A stretch of 45,667 nucleotides of DNA from Candidatus Doudnabacteria bacterium. GTDB taxonomy: Bacteria; Patescibacteriota; JAQUNI01. Numbering within the stretch: the stretch's first letter is position 1; every line of letters starts with the position of its first letter. Shown here one piece after another: positions 1 through 22,285 of this stretch. A program made the translations under genes and the position numbers. The notes under the pieces were generated by a model. That model worked only from the letters and a program-made list of their open reading frames with translations, had not been told where the DNA came from and searched no databases. The stretch covers positions 73,530 to 119,196 of the forward strand of contig JBAZQX010000003.1 of NCBI GenBank assembly GCA_041644975.1. Reading direction: 5' to 3'.

Positions 1-761
1 AGAGATAAATATAAAAGAATGGGTAATACCGTGGGAAGTTTAACTCAATTTCAAAGATCAATCATTATCGGATCAGTTTTAGGTGATGGATATCTAAGAA
101 TAGTCCCAAAGAGAAAAAATGCATTCTTAGAAATCAATCATTCTTTTAATCAAAAGGAGTGTATTGATTGGAAATATTTGGCATTAAAAAATATTTCCGC
201 CTCCCCACCTAAAATGCGCAAGGGTAATGGTAAGAGGATGGCTTACCGTTTTCACACAAAACAGTCTTCAGTATTAGCCACAATTTACCGAAGGTTTTAC
301 CAAAATGGTAAAAAGACGATTCCTCAAAATATCATTTTAGATCCGATAAGTTTAGCAGTCTGGTTTATGGATGATGGGAGTAAATGTGGAAAATTTGATG
401 TCTATCTGACTGAATACTCAAAAATTCAGTATAGATGAACAAAAAATTCTCATTCACAGTTTAAGAAGGTTAGGGTTGGAAGCGACGGTGAATAAAGATA
501 AGATTTACTTCCGTTTAAGGTTCCGAAAGGTTTCATTGTCAAAATTAAGAAAGATTCTGAACGAAAATATCATTCCATCCATGAAATATAAAATTGAGTT
601 ATAACCCCGTAGAGACTTGTCCCTAAGAAGGGACGGATAGAAGTGGTGAATCAAATAAATTAAATTACGGCTTCTATAATATGTCAGCCCCCTCACTTTT
701 TAAAAAGGAGGGGTGAAGATATAGTCCGATCCTCTTAGTAATAAGAGAAAATGCCGACAAG
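1..761 (+). mobile_element. Group I intron interrupting 23S rRNA (3' part only; the 5' end lies upstream of the window); hosts a LAGLIDADG ORF
   Basis: Group I core-like elements CCGTAGAGACTT (607-618) and GAAGATATAGTCC (715-727). The intron ends at G761, directly before 23S exon sequence CGATGTCGGCTCGTCGCATCCTGG (about E. coli position 2500). Confidence 0.75.
19..604 (+). pseudogene. LAGLIDADG homing endonuclease, frameshifted (ORF 19-438 continues in the +1 frame to stop 602-604)
   Basis: Two LAGLIDADG-type motifs (IIGSVLGDGYL and AVWFMDDGSK). The frame breaks at a CTGACTGA tandem 4-nt duplication (406-413). Removing one CTGA restores ...FDVYLNTQKFSIDEQKILIHSLRRLGLEATV...SMKYKIEL*, a typical C-terminal half. 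Confidence 0.8.
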
Positions 762-2536: not shown

Positions 2537-2547
2537 AAGTCCGCCAG

Positions 2548-2629
2548 TTAGGGAACGCTGGTTTAAGTGCATATAATATTCAAGAATTGGTATTTTTTAA
2601 AAAACAATTCGCAGAAAAACGAGTTATAT
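2548..2629 (+). repeat. attC-like imperfect palindrome, family T2 (copy 1)
   Basis: TTAGGGAAC-GCTGG-TTTAAGTGC...GCAGAAA-AACGA-GTTATAT, with inner inverted pair GAATTG/CAATTC. Its first 41 nt differ at 2 positions from the copy at 8823. Confidence 0.55.
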
Positions 2630-2704
2630 GCCATTGCCCAAGAATGGAGTTAAAGATGCTAAAAAAGGATTTTGATAATTATAAACTAGTAAATCGGAGT
2701 AACT

Positions 2705-3574
2705 ATGTATAATTTAATTGTTTCTGGCAGTGATGAATCGTGGAACGGAGACCCATTTATTCTTGAAACTGCACGTTGTGTTCGCGAATACACTGATCAA
2801 GATATTACAGAAAAATATAGCAAATTTACTCAATCCAATATTAATGAAATTACGCGATTTCCTTGCATTTTTGCTTATGAGGATAGATGTAGAAAAAATC
2901 CTAAATTTGGCTTAATTAAAGAAATAGCAAAAAGGCAAAAGAAAGTGAAAATAGTTTACGAGATTATTGATTTGGAAATATTTTTAACTTATTCTGATAT
3001 TTCTGACATACAATTTGAATTGGATATTTCTGATTGGGAAATGAATAGAACACATTGGGCAATCAAGAATGTCAACTTAGTAAAAGAATTGATCGTGAAG
3101 GGTATAAAGTTACCTCAATGGGCTAAAATAGATTCGAAGGCTGTTGATATAACGAAGCATCAGTTTGAAGTTGCATTATCATTTCCCGGTGAAATTAGAT
3201 CTTATATTGAGCCAATTATCGCCGAGCTCGAAAGGGAGGTGGGGCCCAACTCGTATTTCTATGATAATAATTATAAAGCGCAATTAGCGAGACCATCACT
3301 AGATATACTTCTCCAAGATATTTATAGAAAAAGATCAAAGTTAATCGTCATATTTTTATGTAAAAAATATCAAGAAAAAGAATGGTGTGGAGTTGAATTG
3401 CGTGCGATTAAAGAAATAATTATGAGTCGCCAACATGAAAAGGTAATGTTTATTAAAGTGGATGATGGAAATGTGGAGGGCGTATTTAAGACGGATGGAT
3501 ACATTGATGGTCATAGCTACAGTCCAAAAGAATTAGCTAGATTTATTAAGGAGCGTATAGATTTGCTCTCATAA
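2705..3574 (+). CDS. TIR-domain protein (C-terminal bacterial TIR; unrecognised N-terminal domain of about 150 aa)
   Basis: The C-terminal half carries FEVALSFPGEIRSYIEPIIAEL...FYD...LIVIFLCKKYQEKEWCGVELRAI. This is the (F/Y)DVALSFAGEDR-type start and the W..E catalytic-Glu context of bacterial TIR/ThsB-like domains. Confidence 0.75.
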   Translation: MYNLIVSGSDESWNGDPFILETARCVREYTDQDITEKYSKFTQSNINEITRFPCIFAYEDRCRKNPKFGLIKEIAKRQKKVKIVYEIIDLEIFLTYSDISDIQFELDISDWEMNRTHWAIKNVNLVKELIVKGIKLPQWAKIDSKAVDITKHQFEVALSFPGEIRSYIEPIIAELEREVGPNSYFYDNNYKAQLARPSLDILLQDIYRKRSKLIVIFLCKKYQEKEWCGVELRAIKEIIMSRQHEKVMFIKVDDGNVEGVFKTDGYIDGHSYSPKELARFIKERIDLLS

Positions 3575-3597
3575 CAATACAAAATACGGGGCAACGG

Positions 3598-3731
3598 CAC
3601 ATAACAAAGCGTAGATGTGTCGCTCGGAGTACGTTGCTCGGGTTACGCCACATTTTTTACTTGTCACGGTTTTTACAAAGAGTAAAAACGCGTGCCAGTC
3701 AAAAAACGTCGTCTACGCTCAAACGTTGAAT
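3598..3731 (+). repeat. attC-like imperfect palindrome (long variant)
   Basis: CACATAAC-AAA-GCGTAGA (3598-3615) ... TCTACGC-TCAAAC-GTTGAAT (3712-3731). Internal hairpin GTTTTTAC/GTAAAAAC. Confidence 0.55.
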
Positions 3732-3836
3732 AAAATGCCACTTACATTTCAAGAGGCAAGATTTAAATTTGTAAACTACCCCGCGGCAGAGACCGCAGGG
3801 TGTTAGAATTATAAACTATTTTTATTATTGTTATTT

Positions 3837-4763
3837 ATGATGATACCAGAATACATCGGAAACGGAGCATATTGTTATGCTAACTCTGTTTCAATGATGT
3901 TAAAACACGCAGGAGAAGATATTGCTCCTTCTTTGATTGAAGTTTTATCGGGAGTAGGGGTGGGGGCGTTTTGGAATGATAAAACCAAATTAATATTTTT
4001 TAGCAATTTGGCAACTTCTCCTGACAAAGGAATAAATAATACTTTTGAACAACTGGGCTTTCAATACAAGGAATCTGTGCAGGATAATGCCGAGAATCCT
4101 CCAATGGACGAACTAAAAAAATATCTTAAATATTCACTCGCTGTAATAGGACCGATTGATATTGCTTATCTAAAAACCAAAGGAGTGAGCGAAGAACCAG
4201 GGGGAGACCACTATGCTGTCGTTTATAAAATAACGGATAATGAGGTTTGGATGCATGATCCTCAAAAATACCCGGCATTAGCAATTCTAATAAGTGAATT
4301 TAAACAAATATGGAAAGCGGAGAATATTGGATATAGAAAAGGTTTCTATCATTACTGGACTTTACCCAAGAGGATAAGAAATTTTTCATCATCGGAGATT
4401 TACAAAAATGTTATTGAACTATGTAAAAAAGTTTATCGTGATAGCAGAGATCATTCAGACGATATATCTATTGATGAGCAAGCGATTGAATCTTGTGCCG
4501 ATTTTATCAAAAATGGTCCCCGACATCTAAAAGATCATTTATTAAAATTCTGCTTTCCATTGGGAGCAAGGAGAGCATTGGATTATGGGCATTTTTTTAA
4601 TAACCACAATAAAAAACTAACTAAAATTAAAGAAAACCAAGCTGTAATATTTAGTCGCTGCCAAATTGCTGGAATGGATAACGATTGGAAGAAAGTATCT
4701 TCTCTGCTAAAAGAGCTGGCGGAGTCAGAGAAAGAATTTAAAGATATTTTGTTTTTAACGTAA
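3837..4763 (+). CDS. Papain-fold cysteine peptidase-like protein (C39/BtrH-N-like), with a helical C-terminal domain
   Basis: Putative Cys-His-Asp triad: GAYCYANSVSMML, GGDHYAVVY, VWMHDPQ. An alternative TTG start lies at 3828. Confidence 0.55.
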   Translation: MMIPEYIGNGAYCYANSVSMMLKHAGEDIAPSLIEVLSGVGVGAFWNDKTKLIFFSNLATSPDKGINNTFEQLGFQYKESVQDNAENPPMDELKKYLKYSLAVIGPIDIAYLKTKGVSEEPGGDHYAVVYKITDNEVWMHDPQKYPALAILISEFKQIWKAENIGYRKGFYHYWTLPKRIRNFSSSEIYKNVIELCKKVYRDSRDHSDDISIDEQAIESCADFIKNGPRHLKDHLLKFCFPLGARRALDYGHFFNNHNKKLTKIKENQAVIFSRCQIAGMDNDWKKVSSLLKELAESEKEFKDILFLT

Positions 4764-4768
4764 ATGCG

Positions 4769-4851
4769 CCCGAACCTAAATGTTTAAGCGCATACAATAT
4801 TCAAGAATTTGTATTTTTTATAAACACAATGCGCATAACAACGAGTTGTAG
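4769..4851 (+). repeat. attC-like imperfect palindrome, family T2 (copy 2)
   Basis: CCCGAAC-CTAAA-TGTTTAAGCGCAT ... ATGCGCATAACA-ACGA-GTTGTAG. The stem GCGCAT/ATGCGC is perfect. It shares the core ATATTCAAGAATT..TATTTTTTA with copies 1 and 3. Confidence 0.55.
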
Positions 4852-4871
4852 AAAATAAATTCTAGCCTAAG

Positions 4872-5213
4872 ATGAAAAAAACAAACTTTTCATTTAAAAA
4901 AGATAAATATAAGTCTGCTCGAGGCGGTCATTCAAGACTGCTTAATGTTTGTTGCCGTAAATGCGAGAATGTTGTCCTTGTTTATCAAAAAGATGGTCCG
5001 GGTAATTTACGACGTTTATATATGGACAGGATATTTGATCCTGCCGAGTTAACCGGACTGCAAGCCTTGAGCATAAAAGACGTTCCGGCATTAAAATGCA
5101 AAAAGTGCGGCGAAGCGCTTGGCACGCCTTATATTTATATCAAAGAAAAACGAAAAGCTTTTAGGCTGTACCAAGACGCGGTCATTAAGAGATTAAGAAA
5201 GTTGAGCGAATAA
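4872..5213 (+). CDS. Hypothetical zinc-ribbon protein
   Basis: Two CxxC pairs (CRKCENV ... CKKCGEA), basic N- and C-termini. No family recognised. Confidence 0.5.
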   Translation: MKKTNFSFKKDKYKSARGGHSRLLNVCCRKCENVVLVYQKDGPGNLRRLYMDRIFDPAELTGLQALSIKDVPALKCKKCGEALGTPYIYIKEKRKAFRLYQDAVIKRLRKLSE

Positions 5214-5236
5214 CAACGGCGGCTGGAATTTACATC

Positions 5237-5313
5237 CCGCAACACCGAATATCTGTTTTCGCTTCGCTTCACCCAAATTGCTATGCAGCTTCAGATATGC
5301 CGATACGTTAGGC
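5237..5313 (+). repeat. attC-like imperfect palindrome, family T1
   Basis: CCGCAAC-ACCGA-ATATCTG ... CAGATAT-GCCGATAC-GTTAGGC. The central part is nearly identical to the copy at 8170-8247. Confidence 0.55.
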
Positions 5314-5338
5314 TAAATTGCCAAATTTAAATAATACT

Positions 5339-5551
5339 ATGGCTACTTACAAAAAAATAATAAATTATGTCAAGAATAAATATGGTTTTACTATAAAAAC
5401 TTGTTGGATTGCACATGTAAAAGAAATCTGTGGGTGTAACCCAAAAATTGCATTAAATAGAATTAGTTTGAATGATAGAGTTAATCCTTGTCCAAAAGAA
5501 AAATTGGAACCGATAAAGGATGCTTTAAGACACTTCGGAATGATAGAATAA
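5339..5551 (+). CDS. Small conserved hypothetical protein (about 70 aa)
   Basis: ATG at 5339 (MATYKKIINYVKNKYGFTIKTCWIAHVKE...); the ORF track starts at TTG 5318. No confident family assignment. Confidence 0.5.
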   Translation: MATYKKIINYVKNKYGFTIKTCWIAHVKEICGCNPKIALNRISLNDRVNPCPKEKLEPIKDALRHFGMIE

Positions 5552-5563
5552 TTTGGCCACATC

Positions 5564-5606
5564 GCCTAACACGGGATATCTAACTTCGCCTATCGATACA
5601 TTATGC
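5564..5606 (+). repeat. Short or degenerate attC-like element, family T1
   Basis: GCCTAAC-ACGG-GATATC ... TATCGATAC-ATTATGC. The 3' end aligns with GCCGATAC-GTTAGGC-TAAATTGCC of copy 5237-5313 but is mutated. Confidence 0.4.
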
Positions 5607-5649
5607 GAAATTACCAACAAATTTATATTCTAAAATTTAACATTATTTT

Positions 5650-6354
5650 ATGTCAGACAAAACTGAAGGGACATTTGCCCCAGAACAAGAAGGAGGGAGG
5701 GGTATAGAAGTCCTAAATTTGCCAGAAGTTAGAGTAAGCTCTGCCTTATTCGCTAGAATTCGTGATAGCCAAGGAAGATATGCGCTTCTTGTGAACAAAA
5801 ATAGAGCAAAAAAGGGAGATATCTTACTAACTCCGATTGGTGGCGCAATTGAAGCCACTGAAGAAGGTTTGCAAAGCCTTCAACAACTTCTTGAAATTGA
5901 GAAAATTGCTTTTGAAAAAGGAAATGATTTACGCTTCCGTATGCCAGGAAAAAAGGCCAATGAATTTAGGGCATGGTTTCTTCAAAGACAACAGAGAGAG
6001 ACGAACCCAATAAGAGAAGTTGTTGAAGAACTTGTTGATGAGGCAGAGCTATTAAAAAAAGAAGATCTTGGTGAGCTTCAGTGTGACTTGGTCGGCTTTG
6101 ATACTGAGCTGGAGGAAACAACACGTATAGGGCAAGAAGGACAAATGACCCTTCGCTTATTGGAAATATTTGAGGCGGGATTAAAAGCTGAAATTCTAAC
6201 CAAATTAGAAGAATTATCTAATCAACCAAACGCAGTTATTTATTTTGCAACCGCCGAAGAAATACAAGCTGGACAAACTAATGATGGAATTAAGATTAGT
6301 AAATCATCCAACTCTCTGCTGAATCCAAAAGAAACGATAGAACCGTTCATATAA
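5650..6354 (+). CDS. Hypothetical protein, possibly a divergent Nudix fold
   Basis: YALLVNKNRAKKGDILLTPIGGAIEATEEG resembles the Nudix strand plus GG..E. A REVVEEL motif follows later. The canonical Nudix box is not intact. Confidence 0.35.
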   Translation: MSDKTEGTFAPEQEGGRGIEVLNLPEVRVSSALFARIRDSQGRYALLVNKNRAKKGDILLTPIGGAIEATEEGLQSLQQLLEIEKIAFEKGNDLRFRMPGKKANEFRAWFLQRQQRETNPIREVVEELVDEAELLKKEDLGELQCDLVGFDTELEETTRIGQEGQMTLRLLEIFEAGLKAEILTKLEELSNQPNAVIYFATAEEIQAGQTNDGIKISKSSNSLLNPKETIEPFI

Positions 6355-6370
6355 ATTTATTGGCAACATC

Positions 6371-6462
6371 ACATAACAGCGTATATCTGGTGAGGTCTCT
6401 TTAGAGAGACCTCACCCATATCCTCACTTCGCTCGGACATCAGATATAGGCAAACGTTAGGC
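6371..6462 (+). repeat. attC-like imperfect palindrome, family T1
   Basis: ACATAAC-AGCG-TATATCTG (6371-6389) ... CAGATATA-GGCAAAC-GTTAGGC (6441-6462). The inner perfect hairpin is GTGAGGTCTCT-TTA-GAGAGACCTCAC. Confidence 0.6.
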
Positions 6463-6527
6463 AAAATCGCGCTGATTTTTATCTTAAATTTAAAATATAC
6501 ACAAACTAACTATTAACACGTACAATT

Positions 6528-7181
6528 ATGGAAAATCAAATTAATCCACAACAAACAAAGAAAACTCAAAGCTCTAAAATTATTTTGGTTGTTGTTATTT
6601 CTGTTATCGCTATAACTTTAATAGTCGGCGGCGGTATTTATTTGTGGCAAAATTCTAAACTGAAATCCGCAAAAAATAATTTACAACTCAAACAAAACGA
6701 GCCTTCTTCTGTTACAGCTGATAAAGAAGGATGGTCAAGTTACCAAAGTCAAAAATGGAATTTTCAGTTTCAATATCCATCAAATTATGTATTGGACACA
6801 ACTTATGAAAATAAGTATGCCGATCAAGGTCACCTCCATCTATATGACACCCCCATCTATGAAGCTATAAAAAAAGGAGAAATTATTGAGGGAGCGCCTT
6901 TAATTGAATTTTCAGCGTATAATAATCCGGATAAGCTTTCCGCGCTCCAATGGGCTAAAAAAGATACGGCGCGCTCTAATTTTTCCGAAGAATATAAAAC
7001 TACGCAGGTTGATAACAGAGACGCTATGTCATATTCTTGGACCGGCTTGGGTGGAGGAGACACAATTCTTCTGACAAGTGATGATTTGGAATATATTTAC
7101 AGCTTTCATGTTTTGTATATGAATGAGAATGAGAAAATAAGAAATGATTTTTTACAAATAGTTAAAACTATAAAATTTTAA
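6528..7181 (+). CDS. N-terminally membrane-anchored or secreted hypothetical protein
   Basis: One N-terminal TM helix (IILVVVISVIAITLIVGGGIYLW) followed by a soluble domain of about 150 aa. Confidence 0.6.
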   Translation: MENQINPQQTKKTQSSKIILVVVISVIAITLIVGGGIYLWQNSKLKSAKNNLQLKQNEPSSVTADKEGWSSYQSQKWNFQFQYPSNYVLDTTYENKYADQGHLHLYDTPIYEAIKKGEIIEGAPLIEFSAYNNPDKLSALQWAKKDTARSNFSEEYKTTQVDNRDAMSYSWTGLGGGDTILLTSDDLEYIYSFHVLYMNENEKIRNDFLQIVKTIKF

Positions 7182-7197
7182 AAATCAGCGCAACATC

Positions 7198-7285
7198 GCC
7201 TAACAGCATATATCTGACTCGGCTCTTACAGTCACTTGACCCATATCCACCTCGGAGGGACATCGGATATCTGTGAACTTGAGGC
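7198..7285 (+). repeat. attC-like imperfect palindrome, family T1
   Basis: GCCTAAC-AGCA-TATATC ... GGATAT-CTGTGAAC-TTGAGGC. The 3' box deviates from GTTAGGC. Confidence 0.5.
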
Positions 7286-7330
7286 GAAATTTTTCAAAAA
7301 ACAATCTATTTTTATAATTTGAACAATTTT

Positions 7331-8125
7331 ATGCCAGAAGTACCAGGCTACAATCCAGAAAAAGAAAAAACAGTTGAACTAAATCCAACGGAAATGGAGC
7401 CCCTGACAGCATACAATGAAGAATTTTTTATTTCACATGTTGAAGAAGGACAAGATGTATTGGTCGGTCAAGGATTAGCTGATGGAGATTTCTATATAAG
7501 ATGTGATTTTTCGGCCTTTGCTGAAAAACTAAAAGTGGTTACACCCGAAAAGTTGGCAGAACTTTTCGCCGCTGCCGGCAAGCTCGAACAACAGGCCCCT
7601 AATTTGGATGAAGATACTCGAAAATTATTAAATTCATGCTGGAGGACTACAAGAATAACAAGAAATCTTCTCGGTGATGTAGGTTCAGAATTCCAAAGAA
7701 ATCAAAGCTTTCATGAGTATTCAACAAGAACAGTGGATGGTAAAAAGGTTTGTATTAAGCCTATTTCCAAAAGTCAGGGGCAGGCAGTTTGTGCTGAATA
7801 CGCTTTAATGGCCCACCATGTCTTAGAGAAGCTGGGTATTCAATCATCAATTATTGTCGGTGCATTTTCAGAAAATCCCAACGATCCGCTTGCCGACAGA
7901 CACACTTTTCTTGTTTTGGAAAATGGCAAATATGTATTTGATCCAACCCACTCAGCACTGCAAAAAGACAGCTGGCCCCCAAAGGTATTTACCCCTGAAA
8001 CCCCCCTTACTGTTGAATCTCTAAGAGACATGGAAACGGACGATAATAAACCATTCGGCCGAAAAATCATATGTACGGATTTACTCACAAAAAAAGAAAG
8101 GATTTATGGATCGGGAGCAGTATAA
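7331..8125 (+). CDS. Transglutaminase-like / papain-fold thiol enzyme
   Basis: Cys-His-Asp arrangement: GQAVCAEYALMAHHVLEKLGI, ADRHTFLVLENG, YVFDPTH. The ORF track begins at TTG 7319; the ATG is at 7331. Confidence 0.55.
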   Translation: MPEVPGYNPEKEKTVELNPTEMEPLTAYNEEFFISHVEEGQDVLVGQGLADGDFYIRCDFSAFAEKLKVVTPEKLAELFAAAGKLEQQAPNLDEDTRKLLNSCWRTTRITRNLLGDVGSEFQRNQSFHEYSTRTVDGKKVCIKPISKSQGQAVCAEYALMAHHVLEKLGIQSSIIVGAFSENPNDPLADRHTFLVLENGKYVFDPTHSALQKDSWPPKVFTPETPLTVESLRDMETDDNKPFGRKIICTDLLTKKERIYGSGAV

Positions 8126-8169
8126 AATTGTTCAAACTATTTTTAGGGTATTTGTTTTGGAGATACATC

Positions 8170-8247
8170 GCCTAACACTGAATATACGGTTCCGCTTCGC
8201 TTCACCCAAATTGCTATCGCAGCTTCAGATATTCGGATATATTGAAT
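8170..8247 (+). repeat. attC-like imperfect palindrome, family T1
   Basis: GCCTAAC-ACTGA-ATATAC ... CAGATAT-TCGGATAT-ATTGAAT. The centre CGCTTCGCTTCACCCAAATTGCTAT.GCAGCTTCAGATAT is shared with 5237-5313. Confidence 0.55.
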
Positions 8248-8308
8248 AAAATACCACTTACATTTCAAGAGGTGAGATTCAAATTGATGATAAATTTATA
8301 AAATCGCA

Positions 8309-8438
8309 TTTCATGGCTACGCCAGATCTTTAGACAGTCCCGAGGCCGTTCAGGCTCCGAAGAGCCTTCAGGCTCGAGGAGACTTCAGGCTCGAGGAGAC
8401 TTCAGTCCGAAGGTCGTTCAGACCCGAAGGGATCTTTA
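8309..8438 (+). repeat. Palindromic repeat cluster (TTCAGNC.CGAAGG family) inserted in a cassette leader
   Basis: CATGGCTACGCCAGATCT is the reverse complement of 27660-27677. Tandem CTTCAGGCTCGAGGAGA units are present. The same family occurs at 27640-27720, 33925-34015, 38095-38215 and 39385-39500. Confidence 0.6.
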
Positions 8439-8471
8439 GAAAAAAATTATTAACTATTAACCAAAAAACAA

Positions 8472-8810
8472 ATGGAAAACCTTGAACAAGAGGGGGGAAA
8501 TATTAATACCGAAGAAATTAAGAGGGAAAATATTGATATCGAAGAAATCAAAAGATTTTATGATGTGATAGGCACCAAAATGCGTAATTTCACAAGACCA
8601 TCCGGAAAACTGAATGTGGAAGCCTATGGGAGATTTATGGATTTTATGGATAAATTGGAAGAGAAATACGGAAAAGAAGAATTACGAAAATACGCGGCAT
8701 TCCATGCGGCAAGCGGCAGCAGTATTCTGGAGGACGAATTTGTTGACATCACAAGGCTTGATCTTCCGGGTGGAGATTCCATAGAGGATTTTTTTGACTC
8801 ACAAAAATGA
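8472..8810 (+). CDS. Hypothetical acidic protein (paralog A)
   Basis: Full-length homology to the next ORF; the C-terminal FVDITRLDLPGGDSIEDF is identical in both. Confidence 0.6.
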   Translation: MENLEQEGGNINTEEIKRENIDIEEIKRFYDVIGTKMRNFTRPSGKLNVEAYGRFMDFMDKLEEKYGKEELRKYAAFHAASGSSILEDEFVDITRLDLPGGDSIEDFFDSQK

Positions 8811-8822
8811 GCTATCCACCAA

Positions 8823-8905
8823 TTAGGGAACGCTGGTTTAAGCGCGTATAATATTCAAGAATTAAAATTTTTTTAGAAAACAATTCATATAAGAACGAGT
8901 GAAAC
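8823..8905 (+). repeat. attC-like imperfect palindrome, family T2 (copy 3; 3' box degenerate, GTGAAAC)
   Basis: TTAGGGAAC-GCTGG-TTTAAGCGCGTATAATATTCAAGAATT...CAATTCATATAAG-AACGA-GTGAAAC. Confidence 0.5.
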
Positions 8906-8973
8906 GAAATTTTGTTCAATAAATATTTTTTTATTTTTTATTAAAAAATTATTAACTATTGACGAAAAAACAA

Positions 8974-9312
8974 ATGGAAAACTTGGAACAAGAGAGGGGA
9001 AATATTGATACCGAAGAAATTAAAAGGAAAAATATTGATACCGAAGCAATCAAGAGGTTTTGTGATGTGATAAGAACCAAAAAGGATAATGCTATAAGCC
9101 CATCCGGAGAACTGAGCGAGGAAGCCTGGGATAGACTTACGGATTTTATTCAACAATTGAAAAACAAATACGGACAAGAAGAATTACAAAAATACGCGGC
9201 ATTCCATGCGGCAACCGGCAGCAGTATTCCCGAGGGCAAATTTGTTGACATCACAAGGCTTGATCTTCCGGGTGGAGATTCCATAGAGGATTTTTTGGAC
9301 TCACAAAAATGA
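8974..9312 (+). CDS. Hypothetical acidic protein (paralog B)
   Basis: MENLEQERGNIDTEEIKR... parallels paralog A. The same roughly 35 nt leader (AAAAATTATTAACTATT.AC.AAAAAACAAATGGAAAAC) precedes both. The ORF track starts at TTG 8959. Confidence 0.6.
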   Translation: MENLEQERGNIDTEEIKRKNIDTEAIKRFCDVIRTKKDNAISPSGELSEEAWDRLTDFIQQLKNKYGQEELQKYAAFHAATGSSIPEGKFVDITRLDLPGGDSIEDFLDSQK

Positions 9313-9364
9313 ATAGACCAAGATAATATTTTTCTATCGGCAAAATAAAACTTTTCATTACATC

Positions 9365-9452
9365 CAGTGACAGCATATATCTGGCTCGCTCCCTGCAGTC
9401 AATTGACCCATATTCACTTCAGGCGGATATCGGATATCCGCGAACGTTATTG
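9365..9452 (+). repeat. attC-like imperfect palindrome, family T1
   Basis: CAGTGAC-AGCA-TATATCTG ... GCGGATATC-G-GATATCCGC-GAAC-GTTATTG. Confidence 0.5.
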
Positions 9453-9537
9453 GCAGTCGTTCGGGCTTAAAGAAAGGAGATAAGAAACATTTATTATTTA
9501 TTATTTAAATAATGATATTAAAAACATCGGAGGGTAT

Positions 9538-17426: not shown

Positions 17427-17819
17427 ATGCTATTCAAATCCTTATCTTGTCTGTTTTTAATAGTTATTGGCTTCTCTTTATTCGCGCCCTCAAGCAACGC
17501 GGCTTTAGTGCCTTGCGGCGGCACGGGGCAAGACGAATGCAATCTTTGCCATTTCTTTGTCTTAATCCAAACTATCTTTCAATATCTGCTTGGATTTTTG
17601 GGAATCGTGGCGCTGCTCATCTTTGTCATCATTGGCTTTATGTTTTTATTCGGTTCCACCAATGAAGGTCTGCTCACTACCGGCAAAAAGGCTCTTACCA
17701 GCGCGATAATTGGTCTTGTCCTGGTGCTCGTCGCTTGGCTTATAATCAACACTGTGGGCCACGCCATAGGTTGGACGCAACAAGACAGCTGGTGGAAACT
17801 TGACTGCGTATCAGAATAA
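17427..17819 (+). CDS. TrbC/VirB2-like (T4SS-pilin-like) small membrane protein
   Basis: Signal peptide plus two TM helices flanking the loop FGSTNEGLLTTGKKALTSAIIGLVLV, which is the family signature shared by the five downstream genes. Confidence 0.65.
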   Translation: MLFKSLSCLFLIVIGFSLFAPSSNAALVPCGGTGQDECNLCHFFVLIQTIFQYLLGFLGIVALLIFVIIGFMFLFGSTNEGLLTTGKKALTSAIIGLVLVLVAWLIINTVGHAIGWTQQDSWWKLDCVSE

Positions 17820-17820
17820 A

Positions 17821-17850
17821 CCCCGTTAGAGAACTTTGTTTCTAACGGGG
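17821..17850 (+). terminator. Hairpin repeat (CCCCGTTAGA family), possible terminator or attenuator
   Basis: CCCCGTTAGA-GAACTTTGTT-TCTAACGGGG. The same arms recur at 34787-34890. The T-tract is weak. Confidence 0.4.
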
Positions 17851-17933
17851 TAAAAACATTTTTATAATTTCAAAGGATGTCACTCGCGAGCCACGTTGTT
17901 CGCGAACGACGTGGCGAGCGACATCCTAAAAAA

Positions 17934-20900
17934 ATGAACACAAAATCTGTTTTTAAACTTCTATTTCTTTGTTGTATAATCTCTATACTCGGATTTTCTG
18001 TTGCGCATTCTGCTCTAGCGATTAGTGTTGAATTGCAAAACCCCCTCAGTGGAACAGAAACGGTCACAGGGCTCATTAATAAAATCACGGGCTGGGTTTT
18101 AGGCATCGCGGGTTCTATTATGATGATTGTTTTGATTTTCGCGGGTTTTCGCTATTTAACCGCCGGCGCTAATGAAGACAGGGCCAAAAGCGCCAAAAAA
18201 ATGTTGACTTGGGCGATTATTGGCATTGCGGTAATCGTCGGCGCGGCCGCGATTACCAACGCGGTGATGGACGCGCTGGGCGTGCCTGACACTACTACCG
18301 GCGGGGGGGGAGGGCAGGCAAACGTGGCGGCGGCTTTGGACACAATAGAATTGGCTCCGGAGGGCGATCTCAATGGAGATGGAGAAATCAACGCCGGAGA
18401 TACGATAAATGTTGTTGCTAATTTAACTAATAATACTGACCAAGATATTACTCTAAACAACGTCCGTCTTATCGCGGTCGCGGCTGGCTCCGCAACGGGA
18501 ATGAATAATTTTGAGCAAGGGGACAAAAAAAAAGTAGCAGGGGTGAGCACATTAATCGCTGACGAACAAGAAATTCTTGAATGCGGCTACAGGGAATACT
18601 GGATTATCAGAGAATTTGGTCCGATTACCGTTAAAGCGCGGGAAACCGTCGGCTTGAACTCGGAATGGACAGTTCTCAATATTCCGGATGATATTTTGAT
18701 CCAATTAGAAACATCAGACGCAACCCAGCAACAAGCCTGCGAACTTTTAGGCAGGGTGCCGATAGATGGAGGCGAGAGCGGAACTAGCGGCTTATTAATT
18801 TATGCGAACCACACAGTGAAGAGAAGCAGCATCGAAGAGGGCGGAGAGCCTAAAGTCGCGCCCGGCGCAGAAGTCACAATAGAGGTCTGCCTAAAGAACG
18901 ATAACGCCGAAGGCGGCGAAGAAATCTCCGCGAGAGCAGTAAATCTCTCCCCGCAAGAGGAAGGGGTTAGTGTCTCCAATAACCCGCGTAGGTACGCGGG
19001 GGTAGATCCCCAGGAAGAAAAATGCGAAGACTACGACTTTTCAATCGCGGCAGATTACGAACCAACGTCAATCAATTTTAAAATTCAAGGGGCAGCGTCA
19101 GATGACAAAGTCAGCGAAGCTAATATCAAGGTGGATTTAGGTACAGGAGGAGGAGGAGAGGAAGGTGAATGCAGCAATAGCAGCGGCTGCGTGACTTTCC
19201 AAAAATATATCATTCAAGATAGCTCTATTGGCGGATCAAGGCCAAACGCCAAGGTCGTTCCCGGAGCGACCGTTATGATGGATGTTTATTTGGAAAATAA
19301 AACCAGCACAGACTTTGGGGACACTGTACAGGCAACTCTTAGCTCCAGCGACGTTGAGGTCAAAACGGGCAATCCGGGGGAATATAGAGGAATGGGTCCT
19401 AAAATTGAAGGTAAAAGAATAGAAGACGACCATAGCAGATACACATTTGAAATCCCGGTGGGTTATGCTAAAAATTCCATAAGTTTTACGATCCAAGGAA
19501 GCAAAGTAACCTCAACAAACTTTAATGTGCCGTTGGACACAAGTTTCAAACCGAATTTAACCGCCGGCGATTTCGGATCCGGAATAGGCAACGCGCTAGT
19601 GGTCAAGGGCACCATCCTGCATCCTACTTTTTCTATTAAGAACTCCGGCGCGATGGCTCTTGCCGCGAATCAAGATTTTAACGTTGAATTCTACGCCTGC
19701 TATGGCGCCGACGCGGCTGCCTGCGCTGGATTAACCAGTAATCCAGACTATAAGTTCCACTCTGGCAGCGCTAGAGGAAATGCCGCTTGGTGGTACCAGG
19801 ACGGAAGCATACCGGCAGGAGGAGACGTGATGGTGAAATATCCCTTAGATTTCAGAGTCGAAAAATCGGGCAATCTCTATTTCGGCATTAAATTAGACAC
19901 GGGCAACAGTGTTAATGAAAGCAACGAGAATGATAATACGGGCGGACCGTACGAAGTGGAAATCGCTAGCTGGAACGCGGAGGTCAAAGAATTGACTTTA
20001 GACGATGATCCGACCCAGGGGACTAGAATCACTTATATCGATCCTCCAGCAAATACCAAAATAGTTTATCGCGGTTCATTTAAAATCACGAACACCGGAA
20101 CGGGCGACACTAATCTGGGTTCAACGGATTTTTATTACAAAATTGACCTTATTGACGGATCTTGCGCGGAATCCACTAAAGGATTATATAATAGTCAGGA
20201 ACAACAATTAGAGGGCTATCTTCTTCCCGGCAACTCTGTGATTAAAAACTTGGGAATTGATACGAGGGAGAATTATCCGTTCACTTGGCAGCCTGGAAAA
20301 TCTTACAGAGTAAGGATTGTATTGAAGGATCACAGTACACTTAAACGAATACCCAATAAAGTGGTTTGCGCCAAGGCTTTCACCTATGGCGGGGAGGCTA
20401 TACCCACTTATAACGCCAAGGTTCTAAGCGCGAGTCTTGCTCTTACGGAAACAGGGGACGTTAACGTATATGGCAAGGTAAGAAATGACAGCACGAAAGA
20501 CGCGAACGTTAGCTATGCCTGGAGAATTGATAAAAACAGCAGTGGCGCGACGGATAGCTTTGGCTGTTTACAAAACGCTTCTACTTATAATTCAGGCGAA
20601 GGTATGAACACGGGAATGCCCACGGGCGCTGAAGTTACAATCAGTAAAAAAATCGCCAAACCAACTGAAAATGGATATTACCAATCAGTAGTCACGGCAA
20701 GTGTTTCCGGGGATACGGACGCAACGGATAATAAAAAATGCTCTATTCCTCTTAAAATAGAAAATGGCGGAACAATACCGCCGCCTACAGAACCTGCCAT
20801 ATATTACGACATGGAGGCAAGTAAGGCGGAATTGAGTTATGATCCTGCCGCTAACCGATTTAAGCTCAGTTTATGCGTCAAAAATCACAGCACTCAAAAT

Positions 20901-21659
20901 GGTCAAGTTTATAGCGGTTTTATAGGATATTACTCCTGGTCTTTAAGAAGAGGTGGCATCAAATCTGTGGACGCTTCAATGAGCGGTTTTACGGTCGGAT
21001 CAGGTGAACAATGTTTTGAGGATGACTCATACCAAACAGAGCTTGGCGATTATCGGTTTTCTTTAATTACCAGCCTGGGCAACCAAAATATAGATGTTAA
21101 TCCCGGCAATGATTCCATATGGTCCAATACGGTAACAATTTCCGAATCTCCCCCCGCACTACCCCCATCCGCTCCAGCTGACTACAAGACAGAAATCTCT
21201 ACTTACGGCATGACCGCTAATCCGCCGGATAACCCCGGGACTTATAATTACCGCATTATCTACCAAAACAAAAGCACCCAAAATGGTCAACCGATTAGGG
21301 CAAATGTGAGTTGGGGCGTTAAGATGCTGCGCAGCAGCTCTTGGTCAGAGAATTGCCCGGCAAGCGGCGGGTCTCCGGTATTCTCATATAACACAGTCAC
21401 CGATAGTCAGAATGGCATTTTCGTGGATATGTACGGCGATAGTTTTAAACCACCGAGCCAAGGATATTATCATTTAGAGGCTTGGGCTGGGGTTAGCGGT
21501 TACGAAGACAGTAAAAGCTATAAATGCACTAGCGTGGTGCATTATATTCCCGCCACTTCCGCAAGTTTAGACCTCTCCCGCGCTAATGCCTTCGCGCTGC
21601 CACTTTTGGACGAGCAAATCAAAAATTTCTGGCAAAAATTGCAGGAAGTGATAAAATAA
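17934..21659 (+). CDS. Giant surface protein: N-terminal TrbC/VirB2-like pilin domain fused to multiple CARDB-like beta-sandwich repeats
   Basis: Signal peptide MNTKSVFKLLFLCCIISILGFSVAHSALA, then IAGSIMMIVLIFAGFRYLTAGANEDRAKSAKKMLTWAIIGIAVIV. At least 7 repeats follow of the type V.PGA.V...V.L.N.....G. The ORF-track start 17877 lies inside a palindromic repeat, so ATG 17934 is preferred. Confidence 0.7.
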   Translation: MNTKSVFKLLFLCCIISILGFSVAHSALAISVELQNPLSGTETVTGLINKITGWVLGIAGSIMMIVLIFAGFRYLTAGANEDRAKSAKKMLTWAIIGIAVIVGAAAITNAVMDALGVPDTTTGGGGGQANVAAALDTIELAPEGDLNGDGEINAGDTINVVANLTNNTDQDITLNNVRLIAVAAGSATGMNNFEQGDKKKVAGVSTLIADEQEILECGYREYWIIREFGPITVKARETVGLNSEWTVLNIPDDILIQLETSDATQQQACELLGRVPIDGGESGTSGLLIYANHTVKRSSIEEGGEPKVAPGAEVTIEVCLKNDNAEGGEEISARAVNLSPQEEGVSVSNNPRRYAGVDPQEEKCEDYDFSIAADYEPTSINFKIQGAASDDKVSEANIKVDLGTGGGGEEGECSNSSGCVTFQKYIIQDSSIGGSRPNAKVVPGATVMMDVYLENKTSTDFGDTVQATLSSSDVEVKTGNPGEYRGMGPKIEGKRIEDDHSRYTFEIPVGYAKNSISFTIQGSKVTSTNFNVPLDTSFKPNLTAGDFGSGIGNALVVKGTILHPTFSIKNSGAMALAANQDFNVEFYACYGADAAACAGLTSNPDYKFHSGSARGNAAWWYQDGSIPAGGDVMVKYPLDFRVEKSGNLYFGIKLDTGNSVNESNENDNTGGPYEVEIASWNAEVKELTLDDDPTQGTRITYIDPPANTKIVYRGSFKITNTGTGDTNLGSTDFYYKIDLIDGSCAESTKGLYNSQEQQLEGYLLPGNSVIKNLGIDTRENYPFTWQPGKSYRVRIVLKDHSTLKRIPNKVVCAKAFTYGGEAIPTYNAKVLSASLALTETGDVNVYGKVRNDSTKDANVSYAWRIDKNSSGATDSFGCLQNASTYNSGEGMNTGMPTGAEVTISKKIAKPTENGYYQSVVTASVSGDTDATDNKKCSIPLKIENGGTIPPPTEPAIYYDMEASKAELSYDPAANRFKLSLCVKNHSTQNGQVYSGFIGYYSWSLRRGGIKSVDASMSGFTVGSGEQCFEDDSYQTELGDYRFSLITSLGNQNIDVNPGNDSIWSNTVTISESPPALPPSAPADYKTEISTYGMTANPPDNPGTYNYRIIYQNKSTQNGQPIRANVSWGVKMLRSSSWSENCPASGGSPVFSYNTVTDSQNGIFVDMYGDSFKPPSQGYYHLEAWAGVSGYEDSKSYKCTSVVHYIPATSASLDLSRANAFALPLLDEQIKNFWQKLQEVIK

Positions 21660-21730
21660 AATCACAGCGCAAGCAATGAGGCGCCGCGAGCGGCTAAAAA
21701 AACACAAGATTAAAATCAAATAAAAAACCA

Positions 21731-22285
21731 ATGAAAAAATCCAAATATCCACAAATTTTCTGCTTGAGCATCTTCCTGCTCCTCTTTGGTTTTTCTATTT
21801 TTACCGCGACGGCGGAAGAAGATCAAACTGGGTTGCACCGCCCTGACGCCGCGGCGGCTGGACTGCCCGCAGGAGACCTTGAAGCTTTGATTAACGGAAT
21901 CGTGAAATGGATCCTGATCCTAGCGGGGGCGGCTTGCACAGTAGCTCTTGTTTACGCTGGATTTCGCTATGCCTTTGCCGGAGGAAATGAAGAAAAAACG
22001 GAGCAAGCAAAAAAAATATTAAAATACGCTATCATTGGAGTTATAATCATTGTAGGTGCTTACGCTATGATCCAACTTATTACAGAACTTATTAAAGGCA
22101 ATGTTCCGCCAGCGCCAGATCTTACAACGCAAAATCAAAATGTCTGCGACGGTCAACCCTTTGACACCTGCAATGCTGAACGTGCCAGCGCAGGCTGCCA
22201 ATGTAGGCTAGCAGCAAATGCAGGTATTAGTGTATGTGCAAATATTGGTGGTATGCCTGTATGTAGAAGCGGTCCCCTCAATTAG
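21731..22285 (+). CDS. TrbC/VirB2-like pilin-domain protein with a Cys-rich C-terminal tail
   Basis: LAGAACTVALVYAGFRYAFAGGNEEKTEQAKKILKYAIIGVIIIVGAYAM. The tail carries 8 Cys (CDGQPFDTCNAERASAGCQCRL...). Confidence 0.65.
   Translation: MKKSKYPQIFCLSIFLLLFGFSIFTATAEEDQTGLHRPDAAAAGLPAGDLEALINGIVKWILILAGAACTVALVYAGFRYAFAGGNEEKTEQAKKILKYAIIGVIIIVGAYAMIQLITELIKGNVPPAPDLTTQNQNVCDGQPFDTCNAERASAGCQCRLAANAGISVCANIGGMPVCRSGPLN

Follow-up and report, generated by a model that had tools for sequence, protein, structure and literature searches.

Integron cassettes are cut at G|TT and can circularise, which is a textbook principle; that the 5′ end of a cassette belongs with its own recombination site (attC) is said to have been established long ago for integrons, by Hall in 1991 and Stokes in 1997. 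Here we analyze a candidate cassette array from a Candidatus Doudnabacteria genome (contig JBAZQX010000003.1), located at positions 2540-9458 of a 45,667-nucleotide (nt) stretch of DNA, hereafter the window. An earlier note, made from the sequence of the window, had proposed that the box ending each cassette co-varies with the start of that same cassette, as expected of circularisable units cut at G|TT and not of ordinary palindromes. AttC sites are defined as imperfect palindromes bounded by RYYYAAC (R″) and GTTRRRY (R′), with paired R and L boxes (PMC3053210). The window holds seven sites of this description, as recognized by a covariance model (R1, see below), with an inner stem showing compensatory changes in 103 sequences.

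Chromosomal integrons and CALIN arrays, the latter made of integron-type cassettes with no integrase gene nearby, are defined by IntegronFinder (PMC9024848), and in its terms the window array is very probably a CALIN. As in chromosomal integrons (the Vibrio superintegron) and CALINs, the cassettes are co-oriented, mostly carry a single open reading frame (ORF) and an attC hairpin, and cross over at G|TT; there too, the TTRRRY found at the 5′ end of a cassette is part of that cassette's attC, and arrays with no integrase nearby are common. The system under study differs from these in having a stem that continues about 18 to 70 nt past the R box, is split by integration and includes a GAAAT/ACATC extension. 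It differs also in its hosts, mostly bacteria of the candidate phyla radiation, and in the recombinases beside related arrays, which lack the IntI-specific domain. Archaeal integrons (Ghaly et al. 2022, PMC9668308) likewise comprise attC arrays in uncultivated lineages, that study reporting 539 attCs and only six IntIs in 75 genomes. There, calling an integrase required the very domain that the array-adjacent recombinases lack, and term searches of the paper turned up neither an outer helix nor a pairing of own ends that extends past the box. Literature searches, with subscription journals mostly outside their coverage, returned no integron description for Patescibacteria and nothing specific on XerA-attC links or extended attC stems.

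The boxes on which the proposal rested are all present. Numbering the units C1 to C9 in array order, these are GTTATATG at 2623 and CACATAAC at 3598-3605 in the TIR-domain cassette C1, GTTGTAG at 4845 and CCGCAAC at 5237-5243 in the zinc-ribbon cassette C3, GTTAGGC at 5307 and GCCTAAC at 5564-5570 in the 77-amino acid (aa) cassette C4, ATTATGC at 5600 and ACATAAC at 6371-6377 in the NUDIX cassette C5, and GTTAGGC at 6456 and GCCTAAC at 7198-7204 in C6, whose ORF begins at 6528. The deviant box quoted for the end of C6, CTTGAGGC at 7278, is also found in the sequence, but the alignment to the covariance model gives TTGAGGC at 7279 instead. One score had been set too low: the adjacent ATTATGC matches GTTAGGC at five positions out of seven, not four. 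Overall, RYYYAAC boxes match the 5′ end of their own cassette at 38 of 49 positions and the adjacent GTT box at 30. In an exact permutation test with the seven cassettes that have both ends defined, 12 out of 5040 pairings reach 38 (mean 29.9; P=0.0024). Confining the test to RRRY in the seven cassettes with both ends gives 21 for own and 14 for adjacent pairing, again with P=0.0024.

The earlier note was thus correct on the co-variation and understated its extent, as the match runs on for about 25 nt. A repeat finder identified inverted repeats of 19-28 nt linking the start of window cassettes to the bases preceding their own R″, and the true pairing is still the unique best of all 5040 in local alignments from which the 7-mer or the first 12 nt were removed. 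Redefining the boundaries leaves the complementarity intact, because the junctions set by the covariance model (3725, 5307, 5600, 6456, 8241 and 9446) coincide with those read previously. The three cassettes singled out as ill-fitting do fit the canonical boxes poorly: C2 and C8, which end in a repeat called T2, and C9, whose box is CAGTGAC. Co-variation of this type is the classical proof of integron cassette boundaries; its main value here is to certify a genuine cassette array.

Relatives were sought by scanning one genome per species with a pattern derived from four window sites. This yielded more than 118 loci, all but one clearly containing the same type of site. Most are in metagenome-assembled genomes (MAGs) from the candidate phyla radiation; some of the MAGs are labelled as other phyla or as archaeal (Altiarchaeales, Woesearchaeota, Methanophagales, Methanosarcinales, Thermoplasmatota and Candidatus Argoarchaeum). 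An alignment of 103 sites revealed a conserved L box (ATATCTG/CAGATAT) next to a 4-bp helix with abundant compensatory changes. In this alignment, the RRRY columns of the R box (12-14) pair with their physical neighbor in 45-66% of sites, and the variable columns of the inner helix (25-28) in 85-91%. Model R1, built from the alignment, finds exactly seven attC sites in the window, all in one orientation (E values from 1e-14 to 3.5e-3), and 282 sites over all loci, which delimit 149 non-redundant cassettes outside the window, spread over 67 loci. The own-end match was replicated in this set. RRRY agrees at 3.17 of 4 positions with the cassette's own end, against 1.83 with the adjacent one and 1.76 with random ones; at positions 13-30 the corresponding values are 9.90, 5.58 and 5.49 of 18 (Wilcoxon P ~1e-16 in both cases). 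Own identity is 60-70% at positions 13-25 (adjacent, 23-40%) and falls to background from about positions 26-27. As to the cargo of the relatives, 71 of 74 ORFs lie on the top strand, with a median length of 726 nt and a coding fraction of 0.82.

The same cassette in a different context was found twice, as homologous pairs (L108/L081 and L082/L117) residing in different genomes with different neighbors. In both pairs, similarity begins at the TT of the 5′ junction and stops at the GTT of the 3′ junction, and conservation of the hairpin core goes along with that of the upstream ORF. These breakpoints, and the fact that the core travels with the upstream ORF, indicate that attC lies at the 3′ end of the cassette and that exchange occurs at or next to G|TT. 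A crossover on the left (R″) side of the hairpin is ruled out by the same behavior of the core. The NUDIX cassette of the window has homologues (59-66% aa identity), also cassettes, in other metagenome contigs (L126 and L127). The one in L126 has an own-end inverted repeat of 31 nt whose arms differ from those of the window cassette on both sides, in a matched way. Permutations, the 149 cassettes of relatives, the breakpoints and the comparison with class 1 integrons (below) all agree with circularisable cassettes cut at G|TT and not with ordinary palindromes, and we conclude with considerable confidence that the sequence describes a genuine integron-type array of mobile cassettes.

Class 1 integrons provided a control. 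Six cassettes (qacF, aadB, blaVIM-2, arr-3, dfrA27 and aadA16) from three plasmid arrays (L121-L123) were delimited by hand. As in the window, the 5′ end of each complements its own R″ region; unlike in the window family, the match, perfect and contiguous, ends 8-12 nt from the G, positions 13-25 being at background (3-5 of 13). Since class 1 cassettes carry the same box signature, the co-variation of the boxes is an ordinary integron feature. The long outer helix is not, at least in comparison with these six cassettes. As a side observation, the 8-12 nt of the class 1 match exceed the usually quoted 7-bp core and correspond in length to the R box and GAAAT/ACATC of the window family combined.

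In the window family, the own-end stem passes through the R box into a conserved imperfect 5-nt element, GAAAT after R′ and ACATC before R″. On the bottom strand, this element forms one T.T mismatch and one G.T pair; on the transcript strand, it gives A.C and A.A. Position 10 is a conserved mismatch; at position 11, 81% of the cassettes have a bottom-strand G.T. Beyond the element lies a cassette-specific helix of about 13 nt, extending to about 75 nt in some cassettes. Read along the coding strand, every unit starts with G|TTRRRY and RAAAT, continues with a variable arm, the ORF and the complement of that arm, and finishes with ACATC, RYYYAAC, the hairpin core and G|. Among attCs with ACATC, 68 of 113 have arms matching at 10 or more of 13 positions when paired with their own cassette start and 4 of 113 when paired with the adjacent one; where another motif occupies the place of ACATC, arms are largely missing (present in 4 of 36 cassettes). 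Gapped alignments of the ends score 30 or more in 61 of 150 own pairings (14 of them 60 or more) and in none of 150 adjacent ones. An outer helix of at least 13 nt beyond the GAAAT/ACATC motif looks new, and the six class 1 cassettes lack it.

Folding predictions for bottom-strand DNA go in the same direction. Of 153 cassettes, 130 fold more stably at the reconstituted circular junction than in the context of the array, the mean energies being -31.8 and -23.5 kcal/mol, respectively (P=6e-23). In the window, joining a cassette's own ends changes the predicted energy from -30.9 to -40.2 kcal/mol for C1, from -21.4 to -33.4 for C5 and from -13.6 to -25.9 for C6. In the folded bottom strand, GTTT faces T between the R and L boxes, and the T.T and G.T of the conserved element lie outside the R box; these are candidates for the extrahelical bases that, along with an unpaired central spacer, mark the bottom strand of canonical attCs.

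Each cassette of this family begins with the TT of a G|TT junction and closes with the G of the following one, and cassettes very probably enter and leave arrays as circles. The 5′ TTRRRY is then the other half of the cassette's own R box, which is why it matches the RYYYAAC of that cassette and not the adjacent box, and integration splits the outer helix, leaving its two halves on either side of the ORF. Somewhat tentatively, we suggest that the outer helix re-forms in single-stranded or circular cassette DNA. There it could clamp the R box for a recombinase devoid of the IntI domain; alternatively, it could zip the two ends of one cassette together, aligning the flanking sites for precise excision. 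Whatever its role, the split helix allows cassette ends to be paired, attI junctions to be located with single-base precision and missed or hybrid sites to be spotted, all from sequence alone.

A tyrosine recombinase gene adjoins the array in twelve related loci, mostly in divergent orientation and immediately upstream from the first attC. Their products obtain similar scores with the archaeal XerA/integron-integrase model and with TIGR02249, the match to the latter falling into two stretches and staying below the cut-off. Relative to the sequence of the IntI4 structure, residues 181-239 are replaced by 16 residues, whereas the alignment with XerA is uninterrupted. The catalytic R and the HxLRH motif are 91-92 aa apart in 12 of 12 array-adjacent recombinases; in IntI1 of class 1 integrons, which carries an additional domain, the same spacing is 131 aa. 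The replaced segment and the short spacing show that the defining IntI-specific domain (around patch III) is absent. By these sequence features the array-adjacent recombinases are Xer-like, an association that looks new, and bear on the evolution of integrons from Xer-type recombinases. They should fail the IntI-specific criterion of IntegronFinder, in which case the elements would not be called complete integrons; the missing domain may thus explain why surveys of uncultivated lineages find many attC arrays and few integrases. The junction of the first cassette lies 51-138 bp from the recombinase start codon in relatives. In five loci, where it was mapped by searching upstream for the complement of the left arm of the first attC, the distance is 51-104 bp and the junction always reads ...|GTTRRRY. 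A groundwater contig of 2.4 kb (L126:1-2399) holds a gene for a 271-aa recombinase, a T2-like site and one NUDIX cassette with its attC, bracketed by 193-nt inverted repeats (91-283 and 2164-2356) that are 98% complementary. It reflects either a mini-integron that can be mobilised or an artefact of the assembly.

The T2 repeat, which model R1 does not detect, occurs in the window at 2540-2623, 4761-4845 and 8815-8899. T2-like elements are present in L126 (1195-1260), L011 (845-908) and L061 (2508-2571), each between the recombinase gene and the first cassette, and because of this placement T2 is best described as a putative attI-type site, one that looks new. A further T2-like element is found in L062 (L062:3074) without a recombinase. 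The alternative that T2 is a third kind of attC was dropped in view of its escape from the model, its weak fold (-15.1 against -11.0 and -11.4 against -7.0 kcal/mol), its modest own-end complementarity and its homologues in attI position. A promoter role found no support, the promoter scan giving no more sites than shuffled sequence does. In-array units that, like C2 and C8 with their T2, have an attI-derived site at the end in place of an attC are also reported among the delta-attI-type gene cassettes of mobile integrons (PMC12901181). The differences from the cassettes outlined there are that T2 is unrelated in sequence to attI1 and that the window contains three attI-type copies and no integrase.

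The same sequence, TTGAATAAAATRCC..., follows attC1 (3725) and attC7 (8241), and its first bases complement ATTCAA inside T2; the T2 copies contain ATTCAAG, complementary to the TTGAAT at which C2 and C8 start. The shared leader, TTGAATAAAATRCCACTTACATTTCAAGAGG, is 44 nt long (3726-3769 and 8242-8285), is 91% identical between the two copies and precedes both T2-ended units. It may represent the right half of the T2 site. This layout fits an insertion of cassettes into a T2 | TTGAAT site and fits equally the notion that C2 and C8 use T2 in place of attC.

Several observations weigh against an interpretation in terms of mobile cassettes with a functional outer helix. Among the scanned ORFs of the 45.7-kb window there is no tyrosine recombinase, and the 4.3 kb upstream on the source contig contain LAGLIDADG ORFs only; activity of the array in this genome is therefore a prediction from sequence, made with no recombinase gene in the window, and recombination by the array-adjacent enzymes of relatives is likewise putative. 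Three units (C2, C8 and C9) fall outside the canonical pattern. Wobble counts over all cassettes are about equal on the two strands (189 versus 179), showing no strand bias, and the internal mismatches of the arms (12 bottom-strand G.T, 4 top-strand and 13 transversions; P=0.08) are weak evidence as to strand. Compensated positions in the arms number six, in 6 homologous cassette pairs, too few to decide. The class 1 control is small, with six cassettes. Finally, since loci were fetched with a pattern made from window attCs, the survey leans towards the sub-family of the window and gives no measure of how frequent the outer helix is among integrons in general.

Going beyond the window, these elements could form a distinct and widespread lineage of integron-like elements in the candidate phyla radiation, DPANN and other uncultivated microbes, defined by a Xer-like recombinase acting on long-stem hairpins, a zipper helix and end modules that record the making of cassettes. 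We regard this as possible but doubtful. The split outer helix would be a cassette-specific zipper that joins the ends for excision and, once the circle has formed, restores a long duplex there, and conserved end modules with different cargo would record how new cassettes arise. If true, the lineage could be near the ancestral state from which classical integrons arose.

A serious though less likely rival explanation is that the long own-end complementarity acts in RNA. The arms would pair the two ends of each cassette transcript, in the manner of the processing stems around 16S and 23S rRNA, and RNase III could cut the polycistronic transcript of the array into stable single-cassette mRNAs, with the co-variation of the 7-bp box still due to integron recombination. 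The arms are in fact mostly untranslated (the median distance is 72 nt from junction to start codon and 51 nt from stop codon to R″), some helices reach start or stop codons (e.g., C7, 7314-7332 with 8122-8140), the 5′ module of one family ends in a Shine-Dalgarno-like AGAGGGG, and the overall wobble counts lack a strand preference. Conversely, the 5-nt element pairs better on the bottom strand (G.T and T.T as opposed to A.C and A.A), the internal arm mismatches lean the same way (12 versus 4), and the helix leads without a break into the R box of a site for DNA recombination.

A bearing on both the origin of cassettes and the significance of the outer arms comes from one cassette family that shares an end module of about 80 nt per side, consisting of the arm, a small local hairpin and a second, 32-nt helix. 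It is represented in different phyla (L014:116-1810, L060:1732-3709, L072, L079, L096, L097 and L078:742-3349) and encloses unrelated cargo: a NUDIX gene, a gene for a DUF3267-like protein, or a methylase together with a MvaI/BcnI nuclease and an HNH protein. The AGAGGGG sequence mentioned above ends its 5′ part. For one member, the predicted energy of the 264-nt reconstituted junction is -77.6 kcal/mol. Because nearly the same module carries unrelated genes, the sequences suggest that cargo is exchanged inside an existing end module, which provides a lead on the unsolved question of cassette creation. The same data can be turned against a role for the arms. These may have no function of their own and simply be the outermost stretch of a palindromic attC module, contiguous in the circular cassette, that passes on as a whole while its cargo is swapped, so that co-variation results from descent. 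Besides the shared modules, the scarcity of clear compensatory substitutions speaks for this explanation. Descent would account for co-variation between cassettes, but not for the complementarity of arm to arm; moreover, the arms are very diverse in sequence yet consistent in length (background at ~26-27), and the NUDIX cassettes of the window and L126 differ in both arms in matched fashion. We consider functionless arms unlikely, slightly more so than a role in RNA.

Ordinary palindromes (terminators or elements resembling repetitive extragenic palindromes) or small transposons with terminal inverted repeats, arising without integron recombination, would suit a window that lacks a recombinase and has inverted repeats flanking each ORF, but this explanation is refuted and retains next to no probability: a self-contained palindrome would pair with its neighbor, yet adjacent pairing equals random; the partner of the arms and of the variable R-box positions lies at a distance of 0.2-3 kb; the terminator scan found fewer sites than expected from shuffled sequence (3 versus 5.2); transposons and miniature inverted-repeat transposable elements have the same terminal repeats in all copies, whereas here each unit has repeats of its own and the conserved hairpin occupies just one end; and relatives show a recombinase-attI-cassette architecture, with similarity breaking exactly at GTT junctions.

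The array itself contains nine ORFs between 2705 and 9312, all on the + strand, as are the units described here. It opens with T2a (2540-2623), a putative attI-type site homologous to the elements between recombinase and first cassette in L126, L011 and L061; the final base of T2a provides the G of the G|TT junction shared with C1. C1 (2624-3725) carries an ORF (2705-3574) with a TIR_2 domain scoring below the Pfam cut-off, and ends in attC1 (3594-3737). In its own-end helix (2623-2639 with 3589-3605), GTTATATGCCATTGCCC at 2623 agrees with the reverse complement of 3589-3605 at 15 of 17 positions, and both mismatches are G.T on the bottom strand. C2 (3726-4845) starts with the leader TTGAATAAAATGCC... 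(3726-3769), encodes a C39-like/YobF_C protein (3828-4763) and has T2b (4761-4845) instead of an attC. C3 (4846-5307) encodes a 113-aa zinc-ribbon-like protein (4872-5213); its ends pair over 4845-4867 with 5221-5243 (17/23), and attC3 lies at 5232-5319. In C4 (5308-5600; 77-aa ORF, 5318-5551), the paired ends are 5307-5327 and 5550-5570 (21 nt, 81%). AttC4 (5559-5612) is unusually short, 54 nt with flanks, and has a model score of 26.8 bits and a perfect own R box. C5 (5601-6456) harbors the SMODS-associated NUDIX ORF (5650-6354) and attC5 (6366-6468). Its ends pair over 28 nt (5601-5628 with 6349-6376, 82%), or at 28 of 30 positions when bottom-strand G.T is counted. The C5 protein also matches PADLOC models for a CBASS effector and a DRT NUDIX. 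The combination of TIR and SMODS-associated NUDIX cargo suggests a reservoir of anti-phage genes in reduced genomes.

C6 (6457-7279) has a 217-aa ORF (6528-7181), own ends paired over 26 nt (6456-6481 with 7179-7204, 85%) and attC6 (7193-7291), with the deviant R′ TTGAGGC. The pairing in C7 (7280-8241; 268-aa ORF, 7319-8125) is gapped and covers about 54 nt (7279-7332 with 8122-8176), including an inverted repeat of 19 nt (7314-7332 with 8122-8140, 95%); its own score of 33 is the best in its column. AttC7 (8165-8253) has ATTGAAT as R′. C8 (8242-8899) comprises the leader TTGAATAAAATACC (8242-8285), a 112-aa ORF (8472-8810) and T2c (8815-8899); the region preceding the ORF includes about five tandem copies (8338-8423) of a 17-18-nt unit, CGARGAGNCTTCAGGCT. 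C9 (8900-9446), the last unit before the chromosomal genes, encodes a 117-aa paralogue of the C8 protein (8959-9312) and has unmatched ends. The two neighbors are 84% identical in DNA over 300 nt (8435-8734 versus 8937-9236); C8 ends in T2c, and C9 in an attC of canonical type (attC9, 9360-9458) with the deviant R″ CAGTGAC.

The array lies between a tRNA-Ser/GIY-YIG side and housekeeping genes. The window starts with a LAGLIDADG ORF and the 3′ end of the 23S rRNA gene (617-1440), followed by 5S rRNA (1778-1894) and tRNA-Ser(cga) (2126-2215, + strand), which forms the left chromosomal flank. Directly upstream from T2a is a 78-aa GIY-YIG ORF (2300-2536, + strand; PF01541, E=5.8e-12), in the position taken by the recombinase gene in relatives; a candidate role for it as a T2-ended cassette was unsupported, its ends being without complementarity. 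Across the scanned region, Rfam models matched rRNA and tRNA only, with no RNA family over attC or T2 sites. On the 3′ side, the array is followed by genes for a β-propeller protein, a methyltransferase and sigma-70 and, farther on, by dnaA-dnaN-recF. Three LAGLIDADG ORFs were noticed in the 23S rRNA region (window 19-438 and 617-1440; L001:1906-4789). Such ORFs are presumably intron-borne and are frequent in bacteria of the candidate phyla radiation. Together with the T4SS-pilin-like genes and the taxa of the related loci, they make a host from that radiation probable. Away from the array, T4SS-pilin/TrbC domains occur in three clustered ORFs at 17427-22285, of which one is 1260 aa long.

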